A stretch of 62,513 nt of DNA from an uncultured Planctomycetales bacterium (GCA_964428315.1 CAYRXT010000013.1:1-62513); one strand, 5' to 3'. Positions 1 to 54,200 are shown, counted from the first letter of the stretch. Notes: generated by a model not told the origin, from the letters alone. A program made the numbers and translations.

Positions 1-220
1 CCGAATTCCGAATTTCAGACGGATCAGAAAAGTTTTTGTCATTGCGAGCGACCAAAGGGAGCGAAGCAATCTCATAAAGATTATTCTGACAAAGATTGCT
101 TCGGCGCTCCTTGCCGTCGCTTCTCGCAAAGACGGAGAGGGTGTACGGTCTAAGGATTCGATATTCAGGATTGGGAATTTATTCGGGATTTGGGATTTGG
201 CATTGGGAATTTTGAAATCC
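1..220 (+). repeat. Palindromic interspersed repeat (PR element), copy 1, truncated by window edge
   Basis: Matches 1681-1900 almost base for base. It contains the hairpin GTCATTGCGAGCGACCAAAGGGAGCGAAGCAATC...GATTGCTTCGGCGCTCCTTGCCGTCGCTTCTCGC. The ends are inverted: CCGAATTCCGAAT vs ATTCGGGATTTGGGATTCGG. Confidence 0.9.
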
Positions 221-3200: not shown

Positions 3201-6200
3201 TTATTTCTCAATTGAATCCACGGTTGTGTCAATCCTTGGCCGAAGAGTTTATTAGTATGCTGGGCTGTCGCGGGGAGGACCGGTCAGTGGACTTATTTAA
3301 AAATTTAATGGACGATGATTCACGCCTGCATGTCCTACAGGAAATTTTTAAAGATTTCGTGGCGTCCCCAAGTACCCCTTCGAGATCGGGATCTAGCCGG
3401 GAAGAGATTGAGAAGGAAGACAAACGGAAAGACATTTTGAGATATTTCCTGCAGAGATGGTCTGGGGTATCCGTATTCGTAAAGGAAAACGCGGGGCATT
3501 TCACATTGTCCTCGATCCTGGCCGAGTACTTTTTAACCCTGTTAGAGGAAGAAAACCTTGATATGACTGATGAGAGCTTTTTTCCTGCGCAAAGGATTGG
3601 GAAGTTAGGGGAATACTTGGGAGAATACGAAGAAATCATTGAGAACCAGGGGGAACGCGTCCGGAGGATCGGTGAAGAACAGCAGAAGGTTTTACGCGAC
3701 GGCTGGAAAAAGCTTGAGCTGGATGGTGTCATAGAGGACTCTCTTAATCAAATTTTGAACAATGAGACGGAACTGGGATTTGACCTTGTGTTTGCGCGGG
3801 AGGTCTACCGGCGTCTGTTCAACAAAGAACTCGTTATCAAGCATGTGAGTGAATTCTTGACGATCCTTCAGCCCTTTTTGGATGAAAGCCCCCAGAAAAG
3901 TTCTCTGGAAGATGCGGTGTATATCGCAGAAAGACATTGTACGAGTAGGGAGCATGCGTTTATTTTGGTGATTGTGCCTATGGTTTGGGCGGTCATTCGC
4001 TTGAAAATTTTAAAAAAGTTTAAAGAATTGGGATTCAGGATTTGGAATGTGTCCGGGGTTCGGGATTTGTTATTTGGGATTATAAGCGGGGCCTTCGGCA
4101 CGACGAAAAACTTCGGAGTCCTGATGCGGGACTTCGCGGCATTCTTCCGGCGGCTGAAGACCTCGCCGCCTGCGCAGCCGCTTCAGGCCTTCTTCAAGCG
4201 TGACAGGAATTCCCGGGGCGTGAGGACGGGGATATGGCGGAACTTTTTTAAAGCCAGAAGATGGCTGTCGCCGGAGATGAACACGTTTGTGTCAATGACG
4301 GCTTTAAGCATGGTTCTCGCGGCAGGCCTTTATTTCTTCGGCAATGTCCTCGCTGGAGACGGGGAAGCGTTTCAGCCTCCGGTCGATCATCTTTTCGCTC
4401 TGCTGTATTTTAAGGTCAAGGCTTATTTTGATCATGTCGGGGGCCTTCGTATGTTTGTTAACCAATATAGCATGCGCCCCGGGAATAGGCAAGACAAGCC
4501 CGCGGATGCTGGTTTTGAAAAAGGAAGAGCCGTCGCCCTTCGCGCCGGCTTCGGGTTTGGGTGGATCAAGAAACTGCGGGCGGGGGTGGCGATAGCGGCG
4601 TTCATGTTTACGGCCTCGCCGTGTCTGGCCGGCGTTATCATGCCGCAGAAACAGCAGGGGGTGTGGGAAGGCCGGGTGCAGGGGATGATTATGATAATCC
4701 TGGGATTGTTATGGATTTATAATATTTGGAAAAAGTGGATAAGAGAACGCAAGATTTTGGAGAAGATGCAAGAAGCGGACGATGATTCGGATTTTGACGT
4801 GATGTCCGCCTTCTCCGGCGCCGAGGCGCTCCTCGCCCTCCTCGCGGCGGTGAAGAGGCTGTGGACGGCGGGCCTGAAGCTGGTCGGAAAGAAATCAGGA
4901 ATGACAACTGACAGATGCCGAATAAATGTCGAATCCCGAATTCCGAATTTCAGACGGATCAGAAAAGTTTTTGTCATTGCGAGCGACCAAAGGGAGCGAA
5001 GCAATCTCATAAAGATTATTCTGACAAAGATTGCTTCGGCGCTCCTTGCCGTCGCTTCTCGCAAAGACGGAGAGGGTGTACGGTCTAAGGATTTGATATT
5101 CAGGATTGGGAATTTATTCGGGATTTGGGATTCGGTATTGGGGATTTTGCAGTCCGCCTTGAGGATCCTGAGGCGGATGGTCCCGGCGAGCGCCGTTCTT
5201 TTTGCCATGGTTTGGGCCGTGGTTCACTGTGCAATGAGGCTGTTTGATGCTGACATCCCATGGGCCGACGAGGCCGCGGCCATGGGGATGGCGGTTCTTC
5301 CGAACGCGATCCTGAAAGATCAAAATCTTAAAAATCGCGCCGCGCAGGTCGTCCGCAGGTTCACGAGCCTCTTCCAGGATAATTCTGATTCGGTGCGTGG
5401 GAAAATCTTCGGCGGGGATTTTGTCCCGAGGCGTTATTCTGTTTATCTGAAACAGCTTGAGAGCGAAAGCGCTTGGGTGGAAGGCGATAGGGTCCTTGTG
5501 GACACGTACTTGGCCGCATGGTCGTCCGGACAAAGTTCTGAGGTGCTGTCATGTATGTGCCGCCGGGCCTCCATAAGGTATCACCTTGATCCAATAGAGG
5601 ATACGCATCCGTCGCCCGGACAGGTGCGGCTTCTTATTTTCACTTTGAAAATCACGAAAGCAAAGTTTCGGGGAAAGACAGCGGCTGATATGCACCGTCT
5701 TTTTTCCAGAAAGGACAACGCGGCTTCCTACGCCCTGTTTGAGAACCGCGTCTCTATGGACGGATTCTCCTGGTTGATGAATGACGAACCCGTCCGCGGG
5801 CGGGTGCTGAAGGCCGTTTGTGCCGCGGGGAACAGGACAGGTAATTTCTCGCTTTTCCTTGAGATCACCGCTCTCGGCCGGGAGGCCGAACCGGACATCC
5901 GGGTTCTGCACAGATTCATGGATAACTGTGACGGTTCGGACGAAAACATCGCGGCCCCATTCTTGAGTCTGCACGGGGACGATTTCCGGTTATACCGTTA
6001 TGTCATGGATACATTGAAGGTGAAGGAGGAGCGGGACCGTGGATCCCGAATATGGTCGGCCGGGCCCTCGCAGATAATCCCTCTTGTGACGAGCGGCTGT
6101 GATTCGCGAGAGGTCCAGGACCGCGCCGAAGATGTCCGGCCGTTTCTGCGTGTCCTGGAGGACTACGCGTCGCAGGCCGGGAGGCATTACAAAAACGGCA

Positions 6201-9200
6201 GATTACTAAAGGCCGTTATGTTTTACCGCATGGCATGGGACATTGTAAGATATCTGGACGGTCCCGGAGAACGCGTCAGCCCCCGCGGGCTGTCGCCGGA
6301 CCGGGACACGGGGAAGGCCGTCGCAAAGGCGAAGGCCTTAACGGCGTTCGGCTATCTGCATTCACTCGATCGCGCGGCGCTTCATCAGGAGGCCTCCGTC
6401 CGTATTACCGGTATCCCCCGACAGAACCGCGGCGTTATCCAGATGGAACATGCGGTCGTACACCTGGCTGGTGTCCTGAGAAATCTGGGAGAATATGAAG
6501 AGGCCTTGAAGCTGATGACCGCCTCCCCGGACGGCACAGAACTCCGGAAAGATATTGTTTGGATTCAGGCCCGGGACAAGGCTTTCACGCTTCTCATCCG
6601 CGTCTGGACGGAAATGGCCGAACGCGAGACGCAAGACTGGGAGGGTTTTATGCGGCGTTTTAAGGCTTTGATGACAGAAAGGAGAATCAGCAGGACAAGT
6701 TATGAAAAGAGACATGAAGAGCCCTTTGCATTTTCCGGCCGGGAAAGCAGGGCGGCGTCTCCTGTATTTCGCGGCAAGATGGATATAGAGACATTCGAAG
6801 GTGACCGGCGGGAGGTCCAGATTCCTTTTCCGTTTTCCGATCCGCTGGAGGCGGAGAAAACAATTTACCTGTTTGTCTTTCGTCTTATGCAGGCGGAGGA
6901 CTTCAAGAAAAGGTTAATCGGCAGTATTGACTATGGGACGCTTGCCGCAGAAGAGATGGCCAGGATCCTCGGGCTGAAGCCGAAAGAGGTTGATATGGAG
7001 TTTAATGCGGTGACTTGTGAGCATCAGTTTTTAACAAATAGCCTTTTGGTAAAGGAATTTCTTAGGACTGTCTGGTGCAAGCCGGTTGTTCTCGTCCGGT
7101 CCGGCGGTAAAACCTATTTGATAAGCGGCCGGATCATACAGACAGACAAAGAAAGCGCCCGACAACTTTTCGCCAGGACGCTTTACGATCACCTTCGTCT
7201 TGTCCCGTCCTCTTGTCTGCCGGACATGACAGAAGATTTCGAGGTTACCCTGTTGCCGAAGGATTTTGAGCGTCAGATTGTTCCTCTTGGATTAAACGGA
7301 CAGGGCGGGCGGGCGTGTACCGTCATGAAGGCCGGACCGGAACATGTCCTGGCAGGATTGGGCAGGGGACCTGTCGGTGACATAGCCCCGGACTTCCTGG
7401 ATTACGTGACGGTCTCGCGTTTGAACACGCTCATTTTTACGGAAGCGCTTCCTGATCAGGTCAAAGAGTTGTATCGGCTTCTTGTTGCTTCCGACGTGAA
7501 GGTGTTATGGATGACGGAACCGGCTTTCGTTTTGACTAAAGACTTATGGGAGCATGATGTAGTAGGGTCCAAAAAGGAATATTTGGGGGTTTCGCGCATT
7601 ATTAAAGACTTGTTGGAGACAATCGCGCATGTTCATTTTTCCCGGTGGTATAAGCTGGGTGATGAGCTGACACTGTTAGTTTCCCGGGCCGGAGGTTTGC
7701 CCGGCAACGGCATTCTGTTATTCGGCACGCCCGGGGGATTTATCATGGAGGCGGGTCCGCGTTCACTGAAAGGCTCGGTATTAACGGAGGACGCGCAGGT
7801 GCCTGGTTATCCGGTGGACTGCCTTGTGAAACGGGTCGCTCCTTTATCCGTTACGGGCGGTGAGACCAAAAACCGGAAAGAGGACCTGGCCGGTCATGTG
7901 GCGCGGGTCATCCGCCGGGGAGGACATGTCTTCATCAGCGCTTGCGCGGTCGGAGCAGCCCAGGAATTTCTGTCACTCCTGATCCAAAAGCAAAAGCAGT
8001 CCGGTTATCCGGAGTTTTCCGTCTATGTCGCGGGATCGGTCTCAAGCATCACGGATTTAATAGACCGATATCCGAGGGTTTTCCCTGTCCGTCCCGGGGA
8101 GAGGCAGCGGCAGGATCCGGGACATGTCTTCATTCATGGCCGCGGCCCGGTGCGGAAACTGGAGGCCTTGCCAGATATGAATAATGTATTGGGTGTGCCG
8201 GGGGTTTTTGTGGTTCCCGAGGACTGGCAGAAAAATCCGAAGTGCCGTTGGATTTTCCGTCGGGTGGCGGCCGGAGCGAAGAACATGGTTATTGATGACG
8301 GCCCACCGGGGCGGGGCCTTCCGTCCTGGACCGGCGGGCCCGGGATGCCCGCTGCTGTCACCGCCGAGACTCTGAAGACCGACATTCTGCCTCCCGACAA
8401 CCCGCAGGATACCGCCGCATTTATCCGAAACGTTGACCCGGCCAGGGTCATCATTACCGGGGTGACACCGCGAGGGGCCGGGCTGTGGAAGAGGGTTCTG
8501 GAGGACGGGCTGAATGGCAGCTATCGCATTGAGACGGCCCGGCCTATGGTCCCGATGCATTTACCATTATCCGCTGACAGAAAGACGCTATTCGATTCTA
8601 TACTAATGACAAAGGAAAGGGGCAGTTTTTACGGTTTATTCATGGCCGCCGAAGCCGCGCTGGCGTTTTGGGTTGCCGGGGTCCTGCGCGCGGCGGCGCG
8701 GCTTCTGTCCCTGCCCGGTTTCGCCGCCTGGTTCGCGCGGACACACACGCGGTTTAAATCACGAATGACAAATAACAAATACCGAATTCCGAATTTCAGA
8801 CGGATCAGAAAAGTTTTTGTCATTGCGAGCGACCAAAGGGAGCGAAGCAATCTCATAAAGATTATTCTGACAAAGATTGCTTCGGCGCTCCTTGCCGTCG
8901 CTTCTCGCAAAGACGGAGAGGGTGTACGGTCTAAGGATTTGATATTCAGGATTGGGAATTTATTCGGGATTTGGGATTCGGTATTGGGGATTTTGAAATC
9001 CGCCGCCGGAGTGGCGAAAAACTTCGGCGTCCTCGCGCGGGACTTCCTGACATTCTTCCGCCGGCTGAAGACCTCGCCGCCTGCGCAGCCGCTTCAGGCC
9101 TTCTTCAAGCGTGACAGGAATTCCCGGGGAGTGAGGATAGGGATATGGCGGAACTTTTTTAAAGCCAGAAGATGGCTGTCACCGGATACGATGAGATCGG

Positions 9201-12200: not shown

Positions 12201-15200
12201 GCGAGGACAACCAGGTCCTGTATGTCCCCGTGGAAAGCCTGCCTAATTGCAAATGGAATTACGGTATAAAACTTTATTATTTGCAGTTCTTTTTCAGTCC
12301 GGCCGGCCAGACGCCCATCAGGGCCAGGATTAAAGAGATCGAGTTTGTGCCCAAGGCGGGGACGGCTTGCTCGGAGAGCCGCCCGATATCGTCTCAACCG
12401 GGTGTGTCAGAAGCGGAGACCGGAAAAGAAAACGCGTCCGCCCTTTACGCCGGCTTCGGGTTTGGGTGGATCAAGAAACTGTGGGCGGCGGTGGCGATAG
12501 CGGCGTTCATGTTTACGGCCTCGCCGTGTCTGGCCGGCGTTATCATGCCGCAGAAACAGCAGGGGATGTGGGAAGGCCGGGTGCAGGGGATGATTATGAC
12601 AATCCTGGGATTGTTATGGATTTATAATATTTGGAAAAAGCGGATAAGAGAACGCAAGATTTTGGAGAAGATGCAAGAAGCGGTCGATGATTCGGATTCA
12701 GGCTTGATGTCCGCCTTCTCCGACGCCGAGGCGCTCCTCGCCCTCCTCGCGGCGGCGAGGAGGATGCGGGCAAAAGTCTTGTCATTGCGGGGAGCCGCCG
12801 GGACATTGTCGCGCGAGATCGCCGTCACTGCGAGCGACCAAAGGGAGCGAAGCAATCTTTGTCAGAATGTAATTAATGTAATGAATGAGATTGCTTCGCT
12901 CTTCCGGACTCGCAATGACAGAAAGATTAATAAGCTGCTGTCCAGATTCTTGTCATTGCGAGCGACCAGCGGGAGCGAAGCAATCCCTGCTATTGTGAAG
13001 GCTTCTTCCCCTACGATTCGGCATTTGTCTGGCGCTTGGGATTCGGTATCGGGGATTTTGAAATCCGTGATGGCAGTTCACTTTATCGGGAGGCTGCCGG
13101 GCGCTTTGTTAACCTCTATCCGTGGCTGGTGGAGACAAAGACCGCGTAAACCGATAGCCTCCTTCCACTTTATTAGGTCAGGAGGGTGCGAAAGCTCGCA
13201 GTATTCGGATGCGTATTATGCTTCTTCTTTTGGACTGCTGGAATTCCTGCAATCGGCAAGTGGGCTCTTGCATATGGCACGTGTTGTTATTCAACGACTT
13301 GGCGGGGAAGAGAATCGGGTGACAATGGATCATGTCCATTATACAAGTAATGATGTGCAAAAAATTGATGAGCTGGCGGCTCATTTTAAAGAGAAAAATG
13401 CGGCCTGTACTGTACGGTATTGGAAGCAAGGAGGAAAGGCCGTCAGGGTTATGAGTCTTGAGAAGCCTTTGCAGCACGGTTCAGAACTTGGGGTGAAGAC
13501 GGTGATGATAACAACCCTGGACGGCGGGGAGGCGTGTGGAACGGAAGGGGGTTCATGGCAGGCCGGATTTTATTACAGGGGAAAGGCCGGGGATCTGAAA
13601 TTGCCGGAACCGTGGGGGGGTGTCGCTTATAAGGGATCGTCGTATGAGGTGAAAAGGAGAAATCCTTATGCGATTGAGGTGGAGAGCGGGGCAGACTTGT
13701 TCGTTATCAGAAGCCTGCCGCTGTGCGGAAAAGAGAAAGAAATCAAATTGATCAAGGCTCACATGGGCATGGTCAGGAAGATTGCTGCTAGTTCTGGCGG
13801 GAAAAAAAGAGCGGGCTTCAACGAGCTTGTTGCCGCGGGAAATTTGGGGCTGACAGAGGCCGCAAAAGCATTCGCCGTGGAAATAGGAGTTCAGTTTTAC
13901 ACATTCGCAGTCAGACGAATAAAGGGTGCAATAACAGATTATCTGAGAGCCCTAAGCTGTGGGAAAAGGAAGAGTCATGAATGGGTAACAAAGGACCTTA
14001 ACCCCTTTATAGAGCAGTTTGCCCAGGAGAACAGCCGGTTGCCGACGGAACAGGAGATCCTGGAAGGCTTGGGATGCACCGAAGCAGAGTCGCGCTACAG
14101 GATTGAAACCAGTTCTTTTCAATGGCCTAGTTTGCAGGATTCCTTTAGGAATAGCAAAGGCGAGGAATGCAGATCAATAACAATGGCGGATCGCATTCCT
14201 GACGGGTCTGTCGAATCACCCCTGGCTCACATGATTCATAAGGAGGATATGCGAAGAATTTGGAAAGCTTTTAAAGAAGTGGGAGGCAGGCAATGGAAGA
14301 GAAACAAGGAAATATTTATAATGTATTTTTACGACGGCCTCCCGTGTTGGGAAATCGCAGATTATTTTGGGCTAACAGAATCTGCGATCTCTTTGATTAT
14401 TACAAAAATAATAAAAAGTCTGCGAAAAACACTGGGGCGTGAAGACAGGGACGACGATCGGCCCGGCAGTCTGGATGCGACAGCCATGAAGGATTTGGCG
14501 GCGCGGCTTCTAGAGAGCGCGCTGAGAGGCTTCGGACAACCGGACCGCACTGTTCAAGAGGAGCGGGAAGGAATAATCCTAGAGCTTTTTTCAAATGTGA
14601 AAGGTGAAAAATCGAAAAGAGCCTTGATGATCATGAAAATGTTATATTTAGACGAATTACCACCGAAGCAAATCGCAAATCATTTTGAACTGACAACAGC
14701 CTGTATCAATGAGATTCGGGAGCGAATGATAGATGGAATAGAGATGGAAATATGGCGCCGGGAAGACAATAACGAGGAGGCCCAGAGTTTGACAGGACTA
14801 TTCCCCGTTACCGGCGACGGGCTGGCGCTCGCCATGGCCGCGGCGGTCATTCTCCTGGCGCGGCTGGTGTACGGTGTGCGCGCGGCCGGGAGATCCGCCG
14901 CGCTGGCGTACGGCATGGATGTCTTTGTCAAGGCGGTCAACGCGTTCAGCCTGCGCGGGGCGGACAGAGAAAGACTGGCCCGCGCGCGCGTCCTGGTCTT
15001 GGCCGGCGGCAGCGGCGCGGGGCGCTCCCATATCATCAGTCTTCTGATCCGGAACGGGAACGCCGGCCGCGGCAGGGAGGCCCGGCACCTGAGGCTCGTC
15101 ACCAGTCGGCCGGCCAGGAGCAGTGGAGATGACAAGGAATGCGTGTCCATGTTCCGTTTCCTTAGGATGATGTTCGGCGGAAAGCTTGTGGACGTTCGGT

Positions 15201-18200
15201 TCCATTGGGAAGAGCTGGCCTTCTACGCGTTCAGGAAAGACGCCATCCTCCGGGACGGCGAGGATGAGACCGTCTGGCTCGCGGACGTACTGAGGTTCGA
15301 AAGCTTCCTCAAACTCCAAAAGATCTTCCCGGACATCGCGCTGGTCTACATCTCTCCGTTGCCCGTCGAAGAGCTGGAAGACGGCACGGCGGCGCTGGAG
15401 GCCGAGCTGACCCGGCGGCTCAGGGCCAGAAACGGCGGCATGACAGAGGAAAAGATCAGGCGCAGGGTCCGTCTGAGCACGGTTGAGTATCACAAGTTTA
15501 TGCGGCATATGGATGAAAACAGCGGTGGCGTTATCTTCATCAACACGATCCCCGGCCCGGGCGGATGGACGATGAAGAGAAAGATAGCTGATTTTCAATA
15601 TTCATTTCCCGCGGCTGTCCGGCCTCCTGCGCCACTGCCCAACGGGCCGGAGGCTTCAATGACCCGGGACGGGCCCAATGCCGGGACACATCCGGCGAAA
15701 AGATGGGTGCGGGAGCCCGGCACCACCGGATTTCATGAAGGCCACGATCCCTTGGCCCATCATTGGCAGACTGCAAACAATAACTATATAGGTTTGAACC
15801 ATGCTTTTGACGCCGTGAATGGCAATGACGATAGAACTCCCGCCGGGGGGGGGATTGATCCTCTTGAGGGCGTCCGGATGATCCGGGCGGCGTTGCAAAA
15901 TCAGTATGGGGATGCGTCTCGGCGGGACGCCGCCCGCCCGGACGGTCTTCACAGCCTCCTCTTCTGGGGCGGGATGCTGGCGACCGGGGTCTTCTTCTAC
16001 CGGCTGGTCCGCTCTTCGCTGTTAAAGGACTCCCTGCTTGCAGGGCGAGTTCTCACTCCGACGGTATCGCTGGCCGGGCTGGCCGACCGGTTGTTATTCA
16101 GGAAGATCTGGAAAAAGTTCGGTGAAGGCAGCGCCTTCGTGGCGACCTTGAACACGTTCCGCAGGATACCAAGGCTCGGGCTCTTCCTTTTGGTCATCTC
16201 GGTCACCGTCGCGCTGGTGGGGAGCGCGCTTTCGGAGAGAAAGAAGAGATCTGTCCCCCTGCAACCTTCCGAGAAGGTTGAGCCCGCGCGGAGCGCCGGC
16301 ACGGCGCTGAGGAGCGTTGATGCGCTGAGCGGGATTATATTTATTGGATTAGCGGCTGTGACCGTGCTCATGGCCTGGTTCATTTCGATGTGGGAAGACT
16401 GGAAGCCGGCCCGGAATCGAGCGGTGAAGTATGCGCGCGTTACGGCAGGGTACGTGGTCATTATCGGTCTGGGCGCGTGGCTGACGGATAACTTGTTGGT
16501 GATGTTACTATTCAGTTCCATCGGGTATGGATTTTTATATACATGCTTCAGTGAATCGGGAGACCGTGGAGCAAATGACAGAAAGGTTTACACAATTTCC
16601 GATTTGATATTTGGGATTGGGAATTTGTCCGGTGCCCGGGATTGGTTTTTTGGGATTTTGAAACCCGCCTTGAGGCCCCTGAGGCGGATGGTCCCGGCTT
16701 TGAGCTCCCGCGTCGCGGCGGTGTTGGCGTTCCTGACGTCCTTCTTCTTCAGCAGTGGCCTGCTGGCGGCCGGAAAGCAGGCCGCGCGGTCTTCCGGCCT
16801 GGAAGGCCTGGTGATCCTGCTGGCGCTGGGCGTGGTCGCGCTGGGGATGTGCCGGTATCATGCGGCAAAACATGAAGAGGCGCCGGGCCTCTCCGACGCC
16901 GGCGAAATCATGCGCCGCTGGCTTTACGGACGGGAAGACCTCCTCGCGCTTGCCGGCGGTGACCCTGAGACCGCCGAGGAGGTCCTCAAGACCATCGAAC
17001 TGCTTACTGCCGAAGCGTCCGCGGCCGGAAAGAATATCCACCGGCAGGACGAAGAAGGGTTCACGGGAGGCCGGGACCGGTTCAGCGATGATTTGCAAAA
17101 CCGGGGTGTTTCCCATGGAGAACTGCTCGCGCTCATGGAGTCTCTCAGGGAGAAGGCGGGCCGGGCCGCCGCAACCGGGGTGGAGTTGAAGGAGGAGGCG
17201 GACCTTGTGCGGTGCGGCCAGGAGGCGCGGACCGGCGTTTCCATGGCGAAATGGATCGGATGGGCGACTATTGCCGCCGGGCTCGTCGGACTGTTCGGCC
17301 GGCTGGCGCTGACCGGAGTGGTGGAAGCCGGCATCTCCTGGCTGGCCGGCGGCATAATTGTGGCCGGGGCGGCCACAATTCTCCTGGACCTGGTTGTCCT
17401 GGGGTGGGACGGTTTCGTTGAGAGCCTGAAGGAAGAGAGGGCCGCAGAAGATGTCGGGGCGCGCCGGACAGCCCGGCTCCTGAAACGGGCATGGCTGACC
17501 GCCGGTATTATATTCCTGGCCTTTCTGGCGGCGGCGGCCCTGACGGTGCCGGGGCTGTTCGGGGAAGCGATGGCGGGTGCGGCCGTCCAGAAGGCGGCCC
17601 TTTCGTCGGGCATCCTGGGGCTTATCAGCATCGCCGTGGGCCTGGGATACGGGAAGGCCGAAGAAGGCTCGTTCCAGATGAACCTGCGTTCGGGGCGGTT
17701 GTTCCGGTTCTTCATGTTCGCCTTGGCGGCGTTCATGGCCGGGTCCATGGCGGTGGACGCGGCACAGGCCTTTGCCGCGGGCCCGGCGCCGGACGCGGAC
17801 GGCGGCGCGGATGGTGACGGGGGGCTGTCCCCGTCAGGGGACCCCTCCGAAGGAGGAGCTGTGTCTCCGGCAGAAGGCGTAGTGCCGGCTGTGGACCGTC
17901 CTCAGCCGGACACGCCGCGGGAGGAGGGGCCGGAAGAAATGGCGCTGACGGATGCCCCTGCGAAAGAGCCGGTCTCCGTTGTTACGCAGGAGACGCGGGT
18001 GAATCCGGCGCGGGATCCGGAAAAGGCGTCCGCTCCGGACGGTACCAAAGGCACAGTCATATCCGCCGGAGATGACGGCGGGGATTCCTTCCTGTCGCGC
18101 GCGCGGGATTTTGCCGCGAAGGTCTGGGACGGCGTTTCTTTTGTGGGCACTGCCGCGGCGGCCGAATCCTCCCCGGCGGCCGGGCCGCCTTCGCCGCCTT

Positions 18201-21200
18201 CGTCGCCTTCGCCGCCTTCGCCGCCTTCGCCGCCGAAGAGGCCGCGGGATAAACCGACGGACGCTGCCGTTGCTGTGGAAGCGTCCGGCTTCTGGGCCGC
18301 TGTGGCCGCGGACAGTGTTTACACGCCGGAGGACGTCGCGGCGATGGCGCGCGCGACCGACAGCCTGTCTCGCGCCAAGGGCATCCCGGACAGCGATGAC
18401 TTTAAAAGACTTCTGGCGCCGGCCCTGCGGACGGCCGCGACCGCGCGGGATTCGCTGGAGGCGGTCAGGGCGCTGTTCATTCCGCGGGGAGCGGGGGCAT
18501 TCAGATTTCCGGACGAAGAGGTCCTTATTGCGCGGTCTTTTGCCGCGCCGCTGGCCGCGACAGACAGCCTGCGAAGGATCTTGAGCGGAGAACAAGGGCC
18601 GGAAGGGGTCATGAAATTTCTGGGCGAAGGCTGTATTTTAACCGTGTCTTACGCCGGGGCGGGCCTGTCGCGCGTAATGGCGGAGACCGTGTTTGAAACA
18701 AGGGTCATGGTTCTTCCGGGGCATAAATGTCTTTTCGTGAGCCTGCCCGGAGAAGAAGAGGGCTTTGTCTTTGACAGCGCGCTGCTGACAACCGGCCCGG
18801 TCTTCCGGCTGGCACAGTACACGGAGAAGAAAGGGGAGACCTATTATTTCAAAGAGGCGTTTTATGCCGATGTCATGCCCCGGGGATGGGCCGCCTACAA
18901 GGAGAATTTTACGAAATTCCGGCTGGGCCGCGTTGAGAAATTCGCGGCAGGCCTTTTATACAATATCGGCCGTTATTACGACGATCATTATGACTTTGCC
19001 GCGGGGGCGGATTATTTCAGGCGCGCGGCGGCGGTTGATCCGTCGGACACCGAGGCGTGGCATTTGCTGGGCGAAAGCTATCTGGAATTAGGAGAGCTTG
19101 GGCACGCGGTCGCATCCTTCAGGCGGGCCTTCGCGGCGGATCCGCTCCTGCTGGAGAGCTGGCATAACCGCGGAACCATGTTCTATCTTTCTGAGAATTA
19201 TGATAAAGCCGCGAAATATTTCCTGGTTGTTTCGTCGGTGGCCCCGAAGACCACCGGCCTCTGGTCCTCCCTGCTGGCCGGCGGCGTTTACACGCCGGAG
19301 GACGTCGCGGCGATGGCGCGCGTGACCGACAGCCTGTCTCGCGCCAAGGGCATCCCGGACGCGGATGACTTCAAAAGACTCCTGGCGCCGGCCCTGCGGA
19401 CGGCCGCGACCGCGCGGGATTCGCTGGAGGCGGTCCGGAGTGGCTTCGCGTCCCGGGGCCTCGAGCAGAGGCTCGGCGCCTACAACACCGGCGAACACAT
19501 GTCCCTCTTAAAGACCTTCGCCCTTCCGCTGGTCCGGGACGACAGCCTCCGGGCGTTGCTGGCGGACCCGGCCCGGACGGACGAGATAATACAGTACACA
19601 GGCGAGGGCTGTGCCCTGGACATGCCTTACGCGGGCATCACGCTGAAACGTTTTCTGGAAGGCACCGGATTCGAGGTCAGGAAGATGAAACTGCCGGGGC
19701 ATGTCTGTCTGTATGTCATCCTCGGCAAGGATTACGGCTTTATCTTTGACAGCTTTCACCGGACGTTCAGCCCGCCTTTCCGTCTGGAGCAGTACACGGA
19801 ACGCAGAGGAGAGGGGCCGGTTTATTATTTCAAAGAGGCGTTTTACGCCGATGTCATGCCCCCGCGCTGGAAGCCCTTTAAAGACGAGCTGATCAAATTC
19901 ACCCTCAGCGATCCCGGGACGTTTCCCGGGGACATGCTGGGGAACCTGGGCGTCGGCTATTATGCGGACAAAAATTATGAAGTGTCGCTGGAATATTTCG
20001 CGGCGGCTTCGGCCCTCGATACGGCCGAAATGGTTTACGCGCGCGGGACGGCCGACGCGTATTATGCGATGAAGGAAAACAAGCAAGCGGAGTATTACTA
20101 CCGCAGGACGCTGGAACTGGACCCCGATAACCTGGGGGCGTTGTACACCATCGGGGTGATGTTCGAGGAAGCGCGTGAATATGAACAGGCGGCGGCATTC
20201 CTTTCAAGGGCCCTGGACCAGGACTCCACGGACGCGGACGTGCTCGAATACCTGGGGCGCGCCTGCTATTACCTGGATCAGGATACACTGGCGGCCGGAT
20301 ACCTTGAGAGGGCCCTCGCCGAGGATCCCGCGGACGCGGACGTCCTCAAGTATCTGGGCATGACGTATTATTATATGGATAGAAACGCGGAGGCGGCGGG
20401 GCTTCTGGAGAGGGCCGCTGCCGCCGACCCCGCGAGTTCCCTGATCCGCAGGTTCCTCGGGCTGTCCTATTTCTATCTGGACCGGCCGGCGGAGGCGGTC
20501 ATCCGGCTGAAGCAAGCCCTGGACATGGTCCCCGGCGACGTTGAGGCCCTGACCTATCTGGGGCACGCGTATCTGGAGATGGATGAATACGAAAAGGCGG
20601 CGGATTATTTCGGGAAAGCCCTGGGGATAAACCCCGGCGACAAAGACTTGCAGGAATACTGGATCGAGGCCCGGGGGAAAATGAACGAGGATGGCTGGGC
20701 CGCGCCCGGTTCCGCGGATTCTTCCGGGACGAATAACCCGCGGGATTCGTCAGACACCCGGCCCTATTCGCTCCTCACCGTGCCGGAAGGCTGGGATGGC
20801 GGCGGGCGGACCTTCCGTTCGGCCGTGGTCCGGCGGGACGGGCGCTATGTCATCCAGGAAGAGGATCCGGCCGGGCTCTTCGCGGACATCCAGGCGGCGC
20901 TGGACCAGCTGCCCCATCTCTGGCCCCGGGACGTGCGCGGCCCGCCGGAGAGGTTCGAACTTGTGCTCACCGCCGACCGCCGGAAGCTGGGGACCGACCC
21001 CGAAACCGGCCTGACCTGCGCCGCATCCTCCGATACTGTCCGCGACACCGTTTATGTCCACCCGTACCTCAGGGACATCCTGCACGACACCGGAAGAGAG
21101 CTGAAAAACAACGAGAGTTTACGCGAACTGTACTTCCTGTTTTCCGGCCATATCGGTGTCAGTCATATTTACTACGACATATTTACCGAGAATCTCCTGA

Positions 21201-33200: not shown

Positions 33201-36200
33201 TCAATCCGACGGGAGACGGCGTGACATGGAGCGGGGGAGTGTTCGCGAGAATCGAATTGGAGCTGGAAGATTCATGGTGGGCCAAACGGGGAAAGGTTTT
33301 TGAGGCCAGAGAGTATTTGAGGAATAGAGGCCTGCTCGATGGTTCCCAGACAAAGATTCCCCTTGGCTTTGTCGATACGGGAATTGATCCCGACCATCCC
33401 GATCTTGAAGGAAAAGTCAGGTTTAATCCGGATGAAATTCCCGATAACGGTCTGGATGACGACGGAAACGGTTATATTGATGATTTCTGGGGATTTGATT
33501 TTAAAGGGGGAACATTTAATTCTGGAACCGGGCTTTGGATCAATGACCGGGACGGACCATACGACCTTAGCGGACACGGGACCATGACGGCTGGGATTGC
33601 GGCGGCCATTAACAACAACGCGGAAGGCATTGCCGGGATTGCGGATGGTCTTGTCGAAATTGTCGTGGCCAGGGCCCTGGGGGGAGACGGGGCGACCGAC
33701 ATTATTTTATCCAACGCGCTCATGTATCTTGCCATTCGGGGAGCGCGCATTATTAACAACAGCTGGGGGCCCGCTCAACCTGTCGCGTCGAATCCTCTGA
33801 TCGAAGACGTTATCAAGACGCTCACTTATGATTATGGAATCATGGTGTTCTTTGCCGCCGGCAACAGCGGGGTCAATGTCGAGTACGTTTCTCCGATGAA
33901 TCTGGGCGAAACTTACAGCATTACGGCGACCAATCCTTTTGATCAGTGGGAGCCGTGGTCGCCTTTTGGACACGGGCCGAACTACGGACCGTTGAACGAC
34001 CTGGCCGCTCCGGGATACAAAATCCTTTCCACCGTTCCTCCTGACGCGCGCAATCTTAATCCGTGGCAGAAGGTGCCTTATGGCAGTATGCCCGGGCTGT
34101 ATTATTGGGATAACGGAACTTCCTATTCCTCTCCCATGCCGGCCGCCGCGGCCGCGCTTGTCATAACGGCTAATCCGGAATTAAACAAGCCCACGGTTCT
34201 TAACAACATGACGATTGGTCAGATCCTTATTGATACGGCCGATTCCCTTGACGGCGAAAACTACGCCGGCACCGGGATCATCAATATGCTTAAGGCTGTC
34301 AAAAAAGATCCCGGGTCAGTTCTTCCCGCGAGAATCACGTGCCCCGGGCCGGGAGAGGTCGTTTCAGGACCGCTCGAGCTGACCGGGACAGCGGCAGGAG
34401 ACCTTTTTGAAAGCTACAGCTTATATGTTAACACCGGAGACTCATGGGAGATGATCGGCCAGACGCAAAGGGATCCCGTGGTCAACGGAGCGCTGCTTGG
34501 CTGGGACTCGGGCATGCTTTCCGACGGACGCTATCCCCTGAAGCTTGTCGTGAAAGGCGGGGACGGAAATCACAGTGAGCATCAGACGGTCTTGCAGATT
34601 CAGAACAATTATATCAGTTATCCTCAAGCGGAAGATATCTTCAACAGAAAAGATAAAATTATTATCCGGGGAAAGGTTTCTCCGGTCGATTTTGTATCTT
34701 ACAGGATTGAATATAAAGAGACGAATCAGAACGGCTGGAAGACGGAAGGGATGGTCTTACTCGATGGAGGAACGGCTGCGCCGGGCGATGATCGTCTGGC
34801 CGAATGGGATATTTCCCGCATACCCTTTGGATTATATACCCTTCGCATGAGTGTCGTCACCCGCGATGATTTAGGAACGGAGGTCGAGACGGTTATCAAG
34901 GTCCCGAGGGTGTTGATTGAAACGGCAGATGAAATACCGTCTCAGGCGGGCTGGCCCAAAAGCACGCCGACTCAATTCATGACCGCCGCCGACATAAACA
35001 ACGACGGCTATAATGAGATTCTATTCTATTCGACAGATAAGGGGAGAGGAAACGGCATTCACATGTACCTCCACGACGGCAGACCGGTGCCGGGATGGTT
35101 TGATGCGCAGGGCCGGCCCGTCCACCGCGTTGGTGCTATTCCCAAGTTTGCCGTGGGCGATGTCAACGGAGATCAGAGAGTCGAAGTGGTCGGATTTTCG
35201 GTCCATGACAGCCTTTTTGTCTTTAACGCAGAAGGAGCCCTGCTGGACAAAAAGTTCGTGGGGCCGGGTCAACGATCGAATATGCCTCACGCGGCGGCCG
35301 TCTTGACGGATCAGACCGGAGACGGAATTTTGGATATTGTTATTGCCTCGGTTGATGCCAAGCTTTATACCTTCCAGTGTATCGGTAATACGATCCAGGA
35401 GCCCTGGACTCATCTGTCGCTGCCATATGCCGAGCTTCAAGCAGCGACTCCGGCCGTGGGGAATCTGGACAACGAAGGCCTGGAAGAAATTGTTCTCAGG
35501 CCGCATAACGGACGGATTTTTGTGGTGCGCCGGGACACAATTGTGACCTCGAACGCCCAGGCCGGCCATGGAGCCGCAGCTTCGCCTGTCTTGGCCGATC
35601 TGGATAATGACGGAAAGCCAGAAATAATTCTTCCTTTAGGGCTTGAAGGCAACGGCGGGGTTATCGTTTATCAGTCTATGGACGATAAATTGCACACTAT
35701 GCCGGGATGGCCTCAATACACAAATGATCCGGGGCACACGTACACGAACGAGATTTATGCGCATCCGGCCGTCGGTTTGATCAACAGCGATCAGCATCCG
35801 GATATTCTCTGCGTTTCTTTATTTAATGAACTCTACGGTTGGAGTCATGAGGGTTACCGGATCTGGGAGGATCCTCTTCAAATCAACGGATTGGGAGGGA
35901 CGCGGGATAATCCCGGCGCTTCTTATTATAACACGCCCCTGGTGGGCGATCTTGACGGGGACAGCGTCCCGGATATCGTCGTTGGAGTAAATAATGACCT
36001 TTATATCTTCAGCTGGGTTCCGCGGGAAGGGGCGAGAGTGTCTTACGTCTTCCACCTCGAGAATTCGGGATCTTTCTTCTATGGAGGGATTATCGATGAT
36101 ATCGACAAAGACGGGGATACCGATCTTCTCATCAGCGCTATGGACGGCGTGTACGCCTGGGATTTTCCCGGCGCGTATAATCCTGAGACAGTTCACTGGG

Positions 36201-51200: not shown

Positions 51201-54200
51201 AGTATACGCATCTGGATCAGCGAATTGGTGCCGTCCATTTTGTGTGGCAGAAAGAAAGATCTGTTAGACACTCAAGATGTTTTATCATCCGTAAATTAAT
51301 TAAAAATGGTAAAGATACCACCCATAGGTTGAATGTCTTTGGCGTCATGGCGGCGGTTGGGCAGGTAGCAATAGCGATAGTTTTCTTGGCGATTGCCGCG
51401 TGGGAGTTGCCGCGCATAGGGAAATTAATACTGAGAAACAGCGGGAGGTCCAAAAAGATAGATGGGGAAAAAGTTGCGATATTGGCAATAGAAGACTACT
51501 CCCCTGGAAAGAAGGGGTCAAAAGAGAAAGAGCCAGATATCAAAATAGCCGCCGATATCCTTAAAAAGGCGGGAACCTACTCACAAAAGGAAAAAACAGC
51601 GCGATACGCTCCGAAGAACGTGGATTTTGCGGATATCGTTAAAATCATCAAAGAGAAATCCGTCACGATCCGCGGCATTCTTGAGGGCCGGGAAGGTATG
51701 TTACCGAAGGAAGAGAGGATCGTGCGGGTGCTCGTGAAGGCTCTGCGGGACGCGGGATGGGGTGGCAAGATCCGGGTTTCCGGTTCGAAAAGGCCCAGAT
51801 ACAAGGGGAGGACACAGCAGGAGGATAAAAGAATCGTGATCGTCCAGGAGGATTTTGATCTGGTGAGGAAATCGAACCTGTCGATAGGCACGACGCTTGG
51901 GGTGTTTGACGGCGGGGAATGTATAGGCGCCGTGTCTCTGTTGAATGGTCCGATAACGACTATGATGACAGCGGGGGAGGAAGGAATACGGCATTTCGCC
52001 TATGACGGTGAAGCGTTCATCAAGCGGCGGGAAATTCTTGATTTAAGTCTGCCGACCGACAAGAAATCGACAGTCGCCTTGGGGGGACGATACACTGAGT
52101 GGCATCCGTTATTTCAAAACTACTATAAGGATAACGGGAAAGGGATCCCGGGCAGTGACGGCAAACATTTAAAGACGCGATACGGAGGGATTGTGAGGAG
52201 AGACGGGCGTGTGTACAGCGCACTGGCCGCGAATATGTACAACGCTTTTTGCAACAATGGGTTTGTGAGCGACATTGTGAGCCTGGAAGAGGCGAAGATC
52301 TATGAGAGGTTCACCCGCGCGGCCAAAGGCCGGATGTTATTCATGACGGAATACGGTCGTGAAGCCCAGGAAGAAACTTTGGCAGGACAAACAGTGCAGG
52401 TGTATTTTGGCAACGGCGATGCGGTCAACAGGTTAGAAAAATATTCGGAAGAGAAAAAAGATGGGCATGATAAAGCCCCGTTTGAGGCGCGGGCAGGTCC
52501 GCGGGCCGGATATCAGGGATGGCGTCTGGTCTTAAGAGTCCCGGGCGTTCTGCTGTCCCGGCTCAGGTGGAAGAAGAGTTTAAAGACATTCGTTAAAAGG
52601 CATATGCCGGCGGAGGAATGGAGAGACGATGTGATAAGCGGGGTATTGGCTGTGGCGGAGGCCGCGAAGTGTGTGAGAATATTATACGTCGAGGGAGGAG
52701 AGGGCACGGGGAAGATGGATTCCGGAGGGGCGGAGATGCGGAGGATAGACGCGGAGACGGATGAAATGCTCGCCAAAAATCTGAAGCCGCATGTCAAGAT
52801 ATATTACTCGGAGGATGCCGGTATATTCCAGTCGTTTGAGAACGGAGAAGGTTTTCAAGGGCAAGGCAAGCATATCTGGTACTCCGGTGACGGACTGGAC
52901 GGATCCTCGCTGGTTAAAAGCAACTGCGGAGGGGGGACGATTGGGGCTTTCAGGAAATTCTATGCGGAATCTCCCATCGTCGGCAGGGATGGGAGGCATA
53001 TTGTCGGTTCGATGTTCGTGACCTACGGCGTCAAGGTCGCGTTGATCGTCAGGATCGGCAATAAGGTCTATGAATTTGAGTTAAGGGAAGAGGAATTTTA
53101 CAAGACAGGCCGGATCAGATTGCACCGGAAAAGGAAGGCGCGCGCGAAGGACAAACGCATCGCCGTGGGAGGATCACGCAAACAATGGCCCGAAGGACTG
53201 GAGAAATTTTTTGACAGGTGGTTTGAGGGAGGCGCGGTTCTCGGATACGCGGGCGCGCTAGTCACGGATATCTACGGGATGATAAAGTTTATCCAGGACG
53301 GAGGGAATGGGCTGTTTTCCTATCCCGCCAACAAATTGAGGGTGCGCTCCGAACTGCAGGCGATAGCGGGTATCATAGAGGCGGCGGGAGGGAGAAGTAT
53401 CACCTATGTCCATAAAGACGGGGAATCGGCACAAGACATTCAAAGTCTGCTTGATCTGCCACTGACTCATGAGCCGGACAGCCTTCAACAGCAGAAGGCG
53501 CCTTCTGCGTTTGGGGACGAAAACAGCATAAATGAATTGGAAAGGGCCCTGTCCGGTTCCGGGCGTTATGGCGGGGGATCTGCCGTTCTTTTTGGGACAA
53601 CAATACCGCCGACTGTCATATTAGCCGTGGCATTAATTGCTGTATGGCTGTTGGCAAACAGCATTCTCCGGTCGATGCGAAAAGACTTGGCAGGCGGGGC
53701 CTCTGAGAAAAAGTCCGGTTCCAAAGGGGTTATCGCGGTCATCATTATCGTTTTGATATTGGGATTCTTTCTGTGTGTGAAGACAGACGCCAAGGGCGCT
53801 TCTTTGCGTACCCGGCCGGAGCGTCAAACGGAGAGTCTTGCGGAGCCGGACCGGACAAATCCCGCGGCCGGCAGCACGCGTTTGTATTTAAATATCGGGT
53901 ATGTGGCCGGGATTATTATGATTGCGCTTATAATTTATTTGTATTTGGTTTTGGATGAGGAGGCTCGGGGAGGAGCGAAAATACTGATGGCGGGAATTCT
54001 CATGACCTATTATTTGCTGGGGATGCCCGGGACATCGCCCCAGTCGCGTCTTCCGCGCGGGCTGGATTACGGCGAACTGAACGGAATTTCGGCGGGAGAT
54101 CCTCTCGCGCGGGTCACAAGCCAACGGCGTTATTTGGGTATTCCCGATTCCATGGAGATCCAGAACGTGAGGCCCCTGCCCGGGCGCGGGCGCGCGTACT

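Follow-up and report, generated by a model that had tools for sequence, protein, structure and literature searches.

Our analysis of the window, i.e. the whole stretch of 62,513 nucleotides, points to a FliA/WhiG-type (group 3) sigma factor that became part of a giant multi-pass protein by in-frame capture and that lies there in a long, probably cytoplasmic loop, where it may act by a mechanism based on tethering or proteolysis. The probability that we assign to this explanation is somewhat under one half (about 0.45). The combination of a sigma module, a spare region 4 and a crippled guanylate kinase midway in the chain of a membrane protein that exceeds 20,000 residues is without counterpart among published sigma factors. 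All the sequence features described in the earlier note on this DNA were found, with coordinates close to those given there:

nt 2-62464, plus strand: giant ORF of 20,820 aa, one frame without a stop, 5' end open
nt 12491-12634, plus strand: hydrophobic pair upstream of the block, part of an internal repeat module
nt 12845-12901, plus strand: perfect 14-nt inverted repeat GAGCGAAGCAATCT / AGATTGCTTCGCTC, one copy of a repeat
nt 13166-13747, plus strand: unique 194-aa extension ahead of the sigma module
nt 13748-14434, plus strand: FliA/WhiG-like sigma-70 module with regions 2, 3 and 4 (profile, fold, alignment)
nt 14576-14764, plus strand: second helix-turn-helix (HTH), a tandem duplicate of sigma region 4 (Smith-Waterman; GC 0.36)
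nt 14822-14878 (aa 4941-4959), plus strand: hydrophobic helix LALAMAAAVILLARLVYGV, Kyte-Doolittle mean 2.24
nt 14987-15493, plus strand: degenerate guanylate-kinase-like P-loop domain (fold, intermediate homologues)
nt 15494-16174, plus strand: Pro/Gly-rich tail, modelled with poor confidence, common to contig C67, dN/dS 0.96 (near neutral)
nt 16175-17755, plus strand: about 11 clustered hydrophobic segments, closing the loop (hydropathy)

A sigma module inside a giant membrane protein

The 62.5-kb window is a single open frame throughout, and its product combines many hydrophobic segments (78 hydrophobic windows by hydropathy, part of them overlapping) with domains of extracytoplasmic and of cytoplasmic type. 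Pfam identifies the secreted or surface types Peptidase_S8 (108 bits), FG-GAP, BNR, fn3, CARDB, FlgD_ig/Por_Secre_tail and NosD, and alongside them FBPase and RelA_SpoT, the latter further along the same polypeptide than the sigma and guanylate-kinase-like (GK-like) block. This domain content of one giant membrane ORF agrees with the earlier claim that modules of cytoplasmic and of secreted type are joined in a single frame. Judging from sequence, the host is an uncultured Omnitrophota bacterium: by RpoD the genome comes closest to Candidatus Omnitrophota MAGs (at most 81% identity). By its size, its number of membrane helices and its phylum the ORF belongs with the Omnitrophota giant membrane proteins, and it shares with the published giants the phylum, a length of more than 20,000 aa, the many membrane helices and the mixing of surface-type with metabolic or regulatory domains (West-Roberts et al., 2023, 10.1101/2023.11.21.568195; 2026 preprint, 10.64898/2026.06.07.730766). 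The predicted localisation of giants is called unreliable or unvalidated in these two sources, and the terms sigma, Sigma70, PF04542, transcription, helix-turn-helix, guanylate and polyprotein are absent from their main texts, whose supplements may list such domains.

The sigma module is real, with a complete sigma-2/3/4 architecture and fold as judged by profiles and structure prediction. Pfam Sigma70_r2 (nt 13748-13951; E 1.9e-9, 37.6 bits, cut-off 24) and Sigma70_r4 (approximately nt 14300-14428; E 6.8e-7, 29.1 bits, cut-off 24.1) both score above their gathering thresholds, and the sigma70-ECF superfamily model TIGR02937 gives 93.9 bits (cut-off 42.9). The NCBIfam model FliA_WhiG (TIGR02479) is matched over its whole length (profile positions 1-223 of 224), without a frame break and with sigma-2, sigma-3 and sigma-4 in order, at E 5.2e-35 and 121.2 bits on the cut-out segment and at 112.2 bits in the genome search; both scores fall short of the curated cut-off of 189.6 bits. 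The complete-looking sigma region 2 to region 4 that had been read at 13729-14436 is upheld by these matches. The AlphaFold2 model reaches pLDDT above 90 in blocks 41-160 and 201-270, and Foldseek against the PDB gave only sigma factors among the matches listed (best E 3.8e-8). Among solved structures, WhiG, E. coli FliA and Aquifex sigma-28 match the sequence best. Additionally, an alignment of 72 sigma sequences shows that the module keeps all eight of the eight near-invariant region 2 columns, together with the region 2 consensus F-x-T-[YF]-A-x-x-R-I-[RK]-G-A. On this basis the module is a member of the sigma-70 family, with core RNA polymerase binding and initiation at specific promoters as its putative functions.

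The module resembles FliA/WhiG factors (TIGR02479; 1rp3, 6pmi, 6pfv) in the whole-profile match, the domain order, the region 2 consensus and the best solved-structure matches. Unlike them, it scores below the family cut-off, is internal to a 20,820-aa frame, is followed by a second sigma-4 and resides in a genome (95% complete) where FHIPEP (FlhA) and Flagellin_N gave 0 matches each. It also differs in region 4.2, where the family's ESRVSQ has become ESAISL (within T-E-S-A-I-S-L): the Arg and Gln that are kept in at least 90% of the 72 aligned sequences are replaced by Ala and Leu, and because of this promoter recognition may be lost. As for the extra region-4-like HTH noted earlier at 14605-14750, Pfam gave no match on the second HTH at E<=10, and the claim was borne out by Smith-Waterman comparison with the module's own region 4, which scored 75 over 63 ungapped residues versus 22.3+-3.9 for shuffled sequences (maximum 42; 0 of 2000 reached 75).

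One could argue that the sigma-like stretch is a relic which no longer works with RNA polymerase and persists as a scaffold, as a piece that simply binds DNA or protein, or as filler that drifts in a giant, rapidly evolving gene. The missing Arg and Gln of region 4.2, the FliA_WhiG score under the family cut-off and the lack of FlhA and flagellin matches in the genome are what one would expect of a relic, and so are the long branch of the module (1.94 versus a median of 1.07), indicative of fast evolution, the best identity of 33% to any of 1.84 billion representatives and the relaxed constraint on the adjoining GK-like domain. However, the intact set of near-invariant region 2 residues, the whole-profile match in an unbroken frame, the three sigma domains modelled with high confidence and the recurrence of sigma modules in several giant ORFs, mostly with the 4.2 motif kept, make it improbable that the module is only a remnant.

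The guanylate-kinase-like domain and the course of the chain

The P-loop GGSGAGRS (nt 15005-15028) of the GK-like domain carries Arg in the position of the Walker A Lys (G-x-x-G-x-G-K-[ST]), as had been noticed before. Profile searches gave a divided answer: NCBIfam guanyl_kin (TIGR03263) matches at E 3.4e-5 with 23.5 bits (cut-off 160.45), Pfam Guanylate_kin (PF00625) at E 0.16 with 12.1 bits (cut-off 25.2), and all family cut-offs are missed. The earlier note had named the absence of a significant guanylate-kinase HMM match as an argument against the domain, and this argument applies by half, since only the guanyl_kin E-value is significant. The guanylate-kinase ancestry is supported by fold and by intermediate homologues. 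The top Foldseek matches of the model are all guanylate kinases (E 1.7e-10, TM 0.65-0.77, with PDB 4f4j among the fold matches), for a model built from an alignment of 6 rows of which 2 are true guanylate kinases, so that the fold is biased towards this family. By tblastn the domain finds embedded relatives in large ORFs (E 7.6e-8 and 6.6e-7). These relatives, from ORFs of 2,122 and 5,747 aa, exceed the Pfam threshold for Guanylate_kin (63.2 and 44.4 bits), and the P-loop Lys is kept in them (ORFs of G052 and G131) as well as in true kinases. Its predicted fold and its homology to true GK domains elsewhere in large ORFs of Omnitrophota make the domain one of guanylate-kinase type.

The C67 copy of the domain is 78% identical and has the same GGSGAGRS; the dN/dS of 0.50 between the two copies indicates weak constraint. 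The genome's real gmk is found on contig C47 (212 bits). We would regard the GK-like domain as a nucleotide-binding module, non-catalytic or slow, that lies on the same face as the sigma module, and not as a working GMP kinase. Catalytically dead guanylate-kinase domains that serve binding are known from MAGUK proteins. They likewise keep the fold with changed catalytic features, whereas the window domain, where YGT has changed to YAF, retains the glycine-rich P-loop, with Arg substituted for Lys, along with the TxRxxR motif and the arginines of the lid.

The block lies in a loop of about 1,180 residues (aa ~4212-5391) with hydrophobic segments on both sides; the upstream pair consists of VAIAAFMFTASPCLAGVIM (nt 12491-12547) and a weaker segment, GMIMTILGLLWIYNIW (nt 12587-12634), with KKRIRERK behind it. 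The long loop, which holds the sigma module, is probably cytoplasmic. The hydrophobic helix reported to follow the sigma and HTH parts is indeed present, and with an insertion-energy sum of 0.28 it resembles the neighbouring accepted spans on both hydrophobicity scales, so it may be a membrane span. If it is, the sigma and GK-like domains would be on opposite sides of the membrane. The N-side flank is acidic and the C-side flank basic, and a spanning helix would therefore be oriented N-out/C-in, which clashes with a cytoplasmic sigma. In the C67 paralogue the helix at the corresponding place is non-hydrophobic. As the helix may or may not cross, the earlier description of the domains as embedded between membrane segments may amount to one long cytoplasmic loop.

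A crossing helix would be essential if the protein were a one-chain sensor of the IutY type: a cytoplasmic sigma, the helix as a true single span, a GK-derived extracytoplasmic ligand sensor with a dead P-loop, and signal-dependent intramembrane proteolysis that frees the sigma. The hydropathy and insertion energy of the helix are consistent with such a sensor, the Lys-to-Arg and YGT-to-YAF changes would suit loss of catalysis, and fused sigma, membrane and sensor chains activated by Prc and RseP are described in PMC8999054. However, the flank charges predict the reverse orientation, the closely similar C67 copy has no hydrophobic helix in front of it, and the intact P-loops of GK relatives in other large ORFs suit a cytoplasmic, ATP-using ancestor. 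Additionally, Pfam gave no match to an anti-sigma domain (ZAS, FecR or RskA type) at E<=10 in nt 14501-14800 and 14861-15601, which speaks against this sensor and does not support the anti-sigma-like arrangement proposed in the earlier note. A sensor of this kind is in our opinion unlikely.

Recurrence and possible capture of the block

The block had been described as AT-richer than its flanks. This holds for the sigma half (GC 0.455) and the HTH duplicate (0.363), the window mean being 0.559, but not for the GK-like half, which is GC-rich (0.627; GC3 0.81); the composition breaks at about nt 14750. The step from 0.36-0.46 to 0.63 could be the seam of an assembly or binning artefact that joined unrelated pieces, in a gene that is rich in repeats, with the contig itself ending in one of them and unitigs breaking at nt 15029 inside the stretch common to C67. 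However, a contig of run X1 covers 12734-15029 and one of run X2 (other sample, same study) 14139-15029 with 0 differences each, the depth is even across the break (28.6 in X1, about 6 in X2) and the frame is open all along. Because contigs from two samples bridge the sigma module to the P-loop, the fusion is not an assembly chimera, and an artefact is extremely improbable.

The stretch of aa ~4389-5349 is single-copy within the ORF and flanked by internal repeat modules. Family searches gave none for the 194-aa extension at its front, and the inverted repeat of nt 12845-12901 is present in 5 copies on the plus strand of the window, in identical codon phase in all of them. With the block as query, sigma matches within ORFs of 6,684-85,816 aa were found in 4 of 40 related genomes. 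Sigma70_r2 scores above the Pfam cut-off 13 times in ORFs of more than 2,000 aa in five genomes, which were chosen because such matches had already been seen there; region 3 and/or region 4 adjoin these matches, and the sigma modules of other giant ORFs mostly retain the 4.2 motif. The order to which the window belongs is represented by 168 genomes, in which FliA_WhiG scores best in two ORFs of 44,145 and 85,816 aa; no match at all reaches the family cut-off, and a stand-alone FliA passing it was found in none (0/168). Stand-alone FliA-like genes of 234-340 aa occur elsewhere in the phylum, in other classes, and share 27-29% identity with the window module. The captured gene considered in the earlier note fits this picture: a unique block between repeats, a jump in composition, and stand-alone FliA-like genes elsewhere, with none above the FliA cut-off in the order's 168 genomes.

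Possible workings of an embedded sigma factor

The giant chain could also be a polyprotein of whole proteins that is cut constitutively, which would leave the sigma module as a free alternative sigma factor like any other and the GK-like domain as a small protein of its own, with the membrane segments as spacers or parts of other products. A Peptidase_S8 domain is carried by the same ORF, cleavage of giants by their own peptidase domains has been proposed (West-Roberts et al., 2023), and the sigma module is complete and protein-sized. However, the Ser-Ser-Pro junction motif SSP[LVAI] occurs 3 times versus 1.2+-1.0 in shuffles, without clear enrichment, and several of the 22 occurrences of the pattern [SA]SP. 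(8.6+-2.7 in shuffles) lie within internal repeats. The S8 domain sits among extracytoplasmic-type modules and for this reason may not reach the cytoplasmic loop. Constitutive cutting thus seems rather doubtful.

We infer that the sigma module is tethered, the giant chain keeping it at the membrane, which is a reasonable reading. It would act while tethered, or would be freed by proteolysis as pro-sigma factors and one-chain sigma/anti-sigma fusions are, and would then guide core RNA polymerase to promoters whose -35 requirement is altered or absent. Pro-sigma-E and pro-sigma-K of Bacillus sporulation are inactive membrane-associated precursors with short N-terminal pro-sequences that are activated by proteases; unlike the window module, they are not embedded in a giant multi-domain chain. 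One-chain fusions such as IutY (ECF243) of Pseudomonas putida, ECF48/52/53 (e.g. SCO4117) and ECF36 are described as activated by proteolytic release (PMC8999054), and they have in common with the window protein a sigma domain covalently tied to membrane segments and further domains. However, they have a group 4 (ECF) sigma at the protein start, extensions of at most about 400 residues and an anti-sigma or zinc-finger part (PMC8999054), whereas the window module resembles group 3 and lies mid-chain, flanked by hydrophobic segments, with thousands of residues in both directions and no anti-sigma domain found.

One could go further and see in the giant protein a self-contained surface-to-gene machine, a single chain that senses, signals and re-programmes transcription; we regard this as a very unlikely extension. 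If it were true, contact or cleavage at the outer modules would free or switch on the built-in FliA-derived sigma factor, the dead GK-like domain would be a sensor of guanine nucleotides or (p)ppGpp fed by the RelA/SpoT-type synthetase domain, and the in-frame palindromic repeats would shuffle such cassettes into giant genes.

The sigma module and its duplicated region 4

A single frame of 20,820 codons, truncated at the 5' end, fills the contig from nt 2 onwards and is closed by a stop at 62464. The source genome (2.28 Mb in 77 contigs, rated 95% complete) has an RpoD closest to Candidatus Omnitrophota records, at up to 81%. Surface-type Pfam domains (TPR, BNR, fn3, CARDB, FlgD_ig/Por_Secre_tail, Peptidase_S8, FG-GAP and NosD) lie along this frame together with cytoplasmic-type ones (Sigma70_r2/r4, FBPase and RelA_SpoT), and 78 hydrophobic windows, overlapping in some cases, were counted on the Kyte-Doolittle scale. 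Giant membrane ORFs of this kind have been described for Omnitrophota in two preprints (West-Roberts et al., 2023, bioRxiv 10.1101/2023.11.21.568195; 2026 preprint, 10.64898/2026.06.07.730766). The earlier note, made from the sequence alone, had recognized a sigma factor from region 2 to region 4 in this frame, and the Pfam search bears this out:

Sigma70_r2: nt 13748-13951, + strand, above the Pfam gathering score
Sigma70_r4: about nt 14300-14428, + strand, above the Pfam gathering score

The NCBIfam profile FliA_WhiG is aligned with the module over positions 1-223 of 224 (E 5.2e-35), at a score of 121 bits that stays below the curated cut-off of 189.6 bits. The solved structures nearest to it by sequence are WhiG (6pfv, E 3e-16), FliA of E. 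coli (6pmi) and sigma-28 of Aquifex (1rp3). The AlphaFold2 model, based on a 72-row alignment, has a mean pLDDT of 76, with values over 90 for sigma-2/3 and for sigma-4; sigma factors make up all the matches listed by Foldseek against the PDB. Of the near-invariant columns in the alignment, the eight of region 2 are all retained, and in region 4.2 the near-invariant Arg and Gln of E-S-R-x-S-Q are replaced by Ala and Leu. FlhA and flagellin have no match in this 95% complete genome; therefore the module is not a working flagellar FliA. For the 194 aa preceding it no family was found, the best ESM Atlas score (0.84) being below the tool's usable level.

The extra region-4-like helix-turn-helix (HTH) of the earlier note also proved to be real. 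Neither the Pfam search over this segment nor BLASTP of region 4 against it gave any match. When the segment is aligned by Smith-Waterman to region 4 of the module itself, the score is 75 across 63 residues with no gap, compared with 22.3+-3.9 and a maximum of 42 for shuffled sequences (n=2000), and the segment is the top non-self match to region 4 across all 20,820 residues. Therefore, we regard this segment (nt 14576-14764) as a copy of sigma-4 that arose by tandem duplication. Its pLDDT is about 50-78, i.e. the model is unsure there. The tandem arrangement was rejected as a general feature: only one of the seven other embedded modules having region 4 is followed by a region-4-like stretch within 250 aa. 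Elsewhere in the frame, the stretch at 58260-58980 (aa about 19420-19530) gives Smith-Waterman scores of 61-77 with the sigma-4 segment (shuffles at most 42); this alignment contains gaps and many charged residues and may be compositional only.

The guanylate-kinase-like domain and the continuity of the frame

The guanylate-kinase (GK)-like domain which the earlier note had placed after the sigma part holds by its fold and by its relatives, and its own HMM scores are weak taken alone (guanyl_kin E 3.4e-5, Pfam E 0.16). Several guanylate kinases of the PDB match it at E 0.3-1.4, and a word-indexed homologue search among proteins of 135-433 aa found nothing. Its model reached a pLDDT of 70.8 and a pTM of 0.69, with guanylate kinases as the only top matches (E 1.7e-10, TM 0.65-0.77); this model is biased, because its 6-row alignment held two true kinases. 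Among the 168 genomes of the order, matches at E<=0.001 were obtained in seven, and two of these matches are embedded in ORFs of 2,122 aa (G052) and 5,747 aa (G131). The two relatives are 23-25% identical to the window's domain (tblastn E 7.6e-8 and 6.6e-7), score 63.2 and 44.4 bits with Pfam Guanylate_kin, above its cut-off, and retain the P-loop Lys. As the earlier note had read, this Lys is Arg in the window (GGSGAGRS), and the same motif is found in a second copy, 78-79% identical, on C67, another contig of the genome. Both copies carry YAF where the sequences aligned with them read YG[TV], and both retain T-x-R-x-x-R, the strand 3 Asp and three lid arginines. The dN/dS between them is 0.50 over 250 GK-like codons and 0.96 over the next 160 codons, and judged from these codons the constraint on the domain between the two copies is weak. 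The genome's real gmk sits on a different contig (C47). We take the domain to be derived from a kinase and probably non-catalytic.

The block had been described as AT-rich in the earlier note, which is correct for the sigma block (GC 0.455, among the lowest 3.7% of the contig's windows of the same size) and for the HTH duplicate (0.363), and incorrect for the GK-like part (0.627). A GC break of such size could be a sign of an assembly chimera. However, Logan contigs from two runs cross the break without difference and pass through the P-loop (12734-15029 and 14139-15029). The runs are microbial mat metagenomes from two samples of one study, one of which is possibly the source of the assembly; none of the sequencing runs listed for this stretch is an RNA run. 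The unitigs end at 15029, within a stretch common to C67, and past this point the path depends on short overlapping contigs.

The block itself (aa ~4389-5349) occurs once in the giant ORF. The module just upstream (aa 4127-4388) is repeated at aa 1492-1722 and 3272-3475, and pieces downstream repeat aa 276-347 and 612-687. A 14-nt motif, GAGCGAAGCAATCT, has five + strand copies in the window, all in one codon phase of the giant frame (0.03 in shuffles), and the protein modules around the copies are 52-95% identical to each other:

59-72, + strand, copy of the motif
1739-1752, + strand, copy of the motif
4994-5007, + strand, copy of the motif
8840-8853, + strand, copy of the motif
12845-12858, + strand, copy of the motif, in the upstream repeat
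12888-12901, - strand, perfect inverted partner, 29 nt from the 12845-12858 copy

Only the last + strand copy has such a partner. The final 37 nt of C67 (6,006 nt, open throughout; G000:C67:5970-6006) are identical to window 1-37 and in the same frame; C67 is the only contig with such an end. As this overlap falls within the motif-bearing repeat, a join of the two contigs is no more than possible; it would give about 22,810 codons with the 5' end still open and two GK-like modules. Upstream of its GK-like copy and between membrane-segment clusters, C67 (locus L043) encodes a stretch that looks receiver-like by eye, together with a domain that Pfam assigns to aldose-1-epimerase (36.8 bits).

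Membrane topology and possible release of the sigma module

Upstream of the block, the first hydrophobic segment (aa 4164-4182) precedes a weaker one, after which comes KKRIRERK. The helix behind the second HTH (aa 4941-4959) equals accepted spans in hydrophobicity, and its flanks, acidic before and basic after, predict an N-out/C-in orientation. The corresponding helix of C67 is non-hydrophobic: on an insertion-energy scale its best sum is 7.75, and that of the helix at aa 4941-4959 is 0.28. On these predictions, an arrangement in one loop, with the sigma and GK parts on the same side, is somewhat favoured. Both giant-gene preprints warn in their main texts that predictions of the localisation type are unreliable or unvalidated for such proteins.

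An internal start could not yield a free sigma factor, because the giant frame stays open as far as nt 62464. The scan of nt 12500-16500 for promoters and terminators gave counts not above those of shuffles, with no promoter-like site on the + strand. A Peptidase_S8 (subtilase) domain of 108 bits at window about 33360-34250 makes the polypeptide a candidate for self-processing; a Ser-Ser-Pro junction motif is not clearly enriched in the giant frame. Other cytoplasmic-type functions also lie between membrane clusters, namely a RelA_SpoT nucleotidyltransferase domain at about 56945-57313 (43.3 bits) and a fructose-1,6-bisphosphatase at about 52700-53540, of which the C-terminal domain scores 28.3 bits and the N-terminal domain 27.6 bits, the latter below its cut-off.

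Relatives, origin and significance

Against 1.84 billion representatives the block gave 5,153 matches at E<=0.001 and none at 1e-30, with a best identity of 33%; the best 150 of the 5,153 all match the sigma part only and are mostly 230-300 aa long. Word-indexed searches found nothing, either for the sigma segment (against proteins of 689-2000 aa) or for the whole block (against proteins of 5,500-17,500 aa), and no relative was confirmed in the genome-contig collection (393-aa query, sigma and second HTH) or in the metagenome-contig collection (660-aa query, sigma to GK). Closer to home, the block as query finds sigma matches inside ORFs of 6,684-85,816 aa in 4 of 40 related genomes. The order holds 664 Sigma70_r2 matches; in five genomes, chosen for having shown embedded sigma matches, 13 of 33 are within ORFs of more than 2,000 aa, and region 3 and/or region 4 adjoin most of these 13 by Pfam. 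The design recurs in the order, the longest of the ORFs having 85,816 codons.

NCBIfam typing of 11 embedded modules gave five FliA/WhiG-like and five RpoD/RpoS-like ones and one whose best model is that of the sigma-70 superfamily. They fall into at least two groups, all long-branched, in a tree of 75 sigma rows, where 39 of 72 inner branches are open and the window's module is placed only inside the FliA-like set; the two copies of one 85,816-aa ORF are sisters. The FliA_WhiG cut-off is reached in none of the 168 genomes of the order, the top two matches being in the 44,145-aa and 85,816-aa ORFs. When 401 genomes of the phylum were searched with a profile built from six embedded FliA-like modules, the two giant-ORF matches came first, followed by ~95 stand-alone ORFs (202-340 aa, 124-180 bits), mostly from other classes. 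Two stand-alone relatives share 27-29% identity with the window's module and have retained E-S-R-V-C-Q (four sequences retrieved; locus L126 excluded from the comparison). Such sequences fit a FliA-type gene, resident in the phylum, that would have been captured into giant genes and then diverged fast.

The neighbours of other embedded modules differ in kind. At L029 (G010:C1:315000-318000, 44,145-aa ORF) the sigma module is accompanied by an APH phosphotransferase domain and by HTH_8 of the Fis type (64.6 bits), and at L032 (G021:C24:20900-23900, 8,679-aa ORF) by a GNAT acetyltransferase. One genome of the order (L033 and L034, on G119:C23 and G119:C32) has 13-14 Sigma70_r2 matches in 1.8 Mb, with several tandem RpoD/RpoS-like modules with region 1.2 in ORFs of 2,143-3,581 aa.

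Sigma factors are regarded as free subunits, which bind RNA polymerase and leave it again in cycles, and to our knowledge the tethered forms are small ECF proteins or carry short pro-sequences. Here, a complete sigma factor of the group 3 type is encoded in the middle of a membrane protein that exceeds 20,000 residues. The layout varies the theme of tethered sigma factors and pro-sigma factors, within the known class of Omnitrophota giant genes. Fused sigma/anti-sigma chains that are freed by Prc and RseP are treated in a review (PMC8999054). The main texts of the two giant-gene preprints do not contain the words sigma, Sigma70, PF04542, transcription, helix-turn-helix, guanylate or polyprotein, and by title or opening of the abstract none of five out of the seven papers pairing Omnitrophota with sigma factor concerns sigma factors in giant genes.

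What the earlier note had observed is confirmed, and its interpretation is supported in part. We propose that the sigma factor would be held at the membrane within the giant chain, facing the cytoplasm, and would act in place or once freed by proteolysis, a reading to which we assign a probability slightly below one half (about 0.45). Two ideas arise, both of them testable: either bacteria process giant proteins into functional pieces, or a sigma factor can operate while it is attached to the membrane. The sigma module is small and recognisable and its ends could be sought in proteomes, which gives a handle on whether the giant genes of Omnitrophota are polyproteins.
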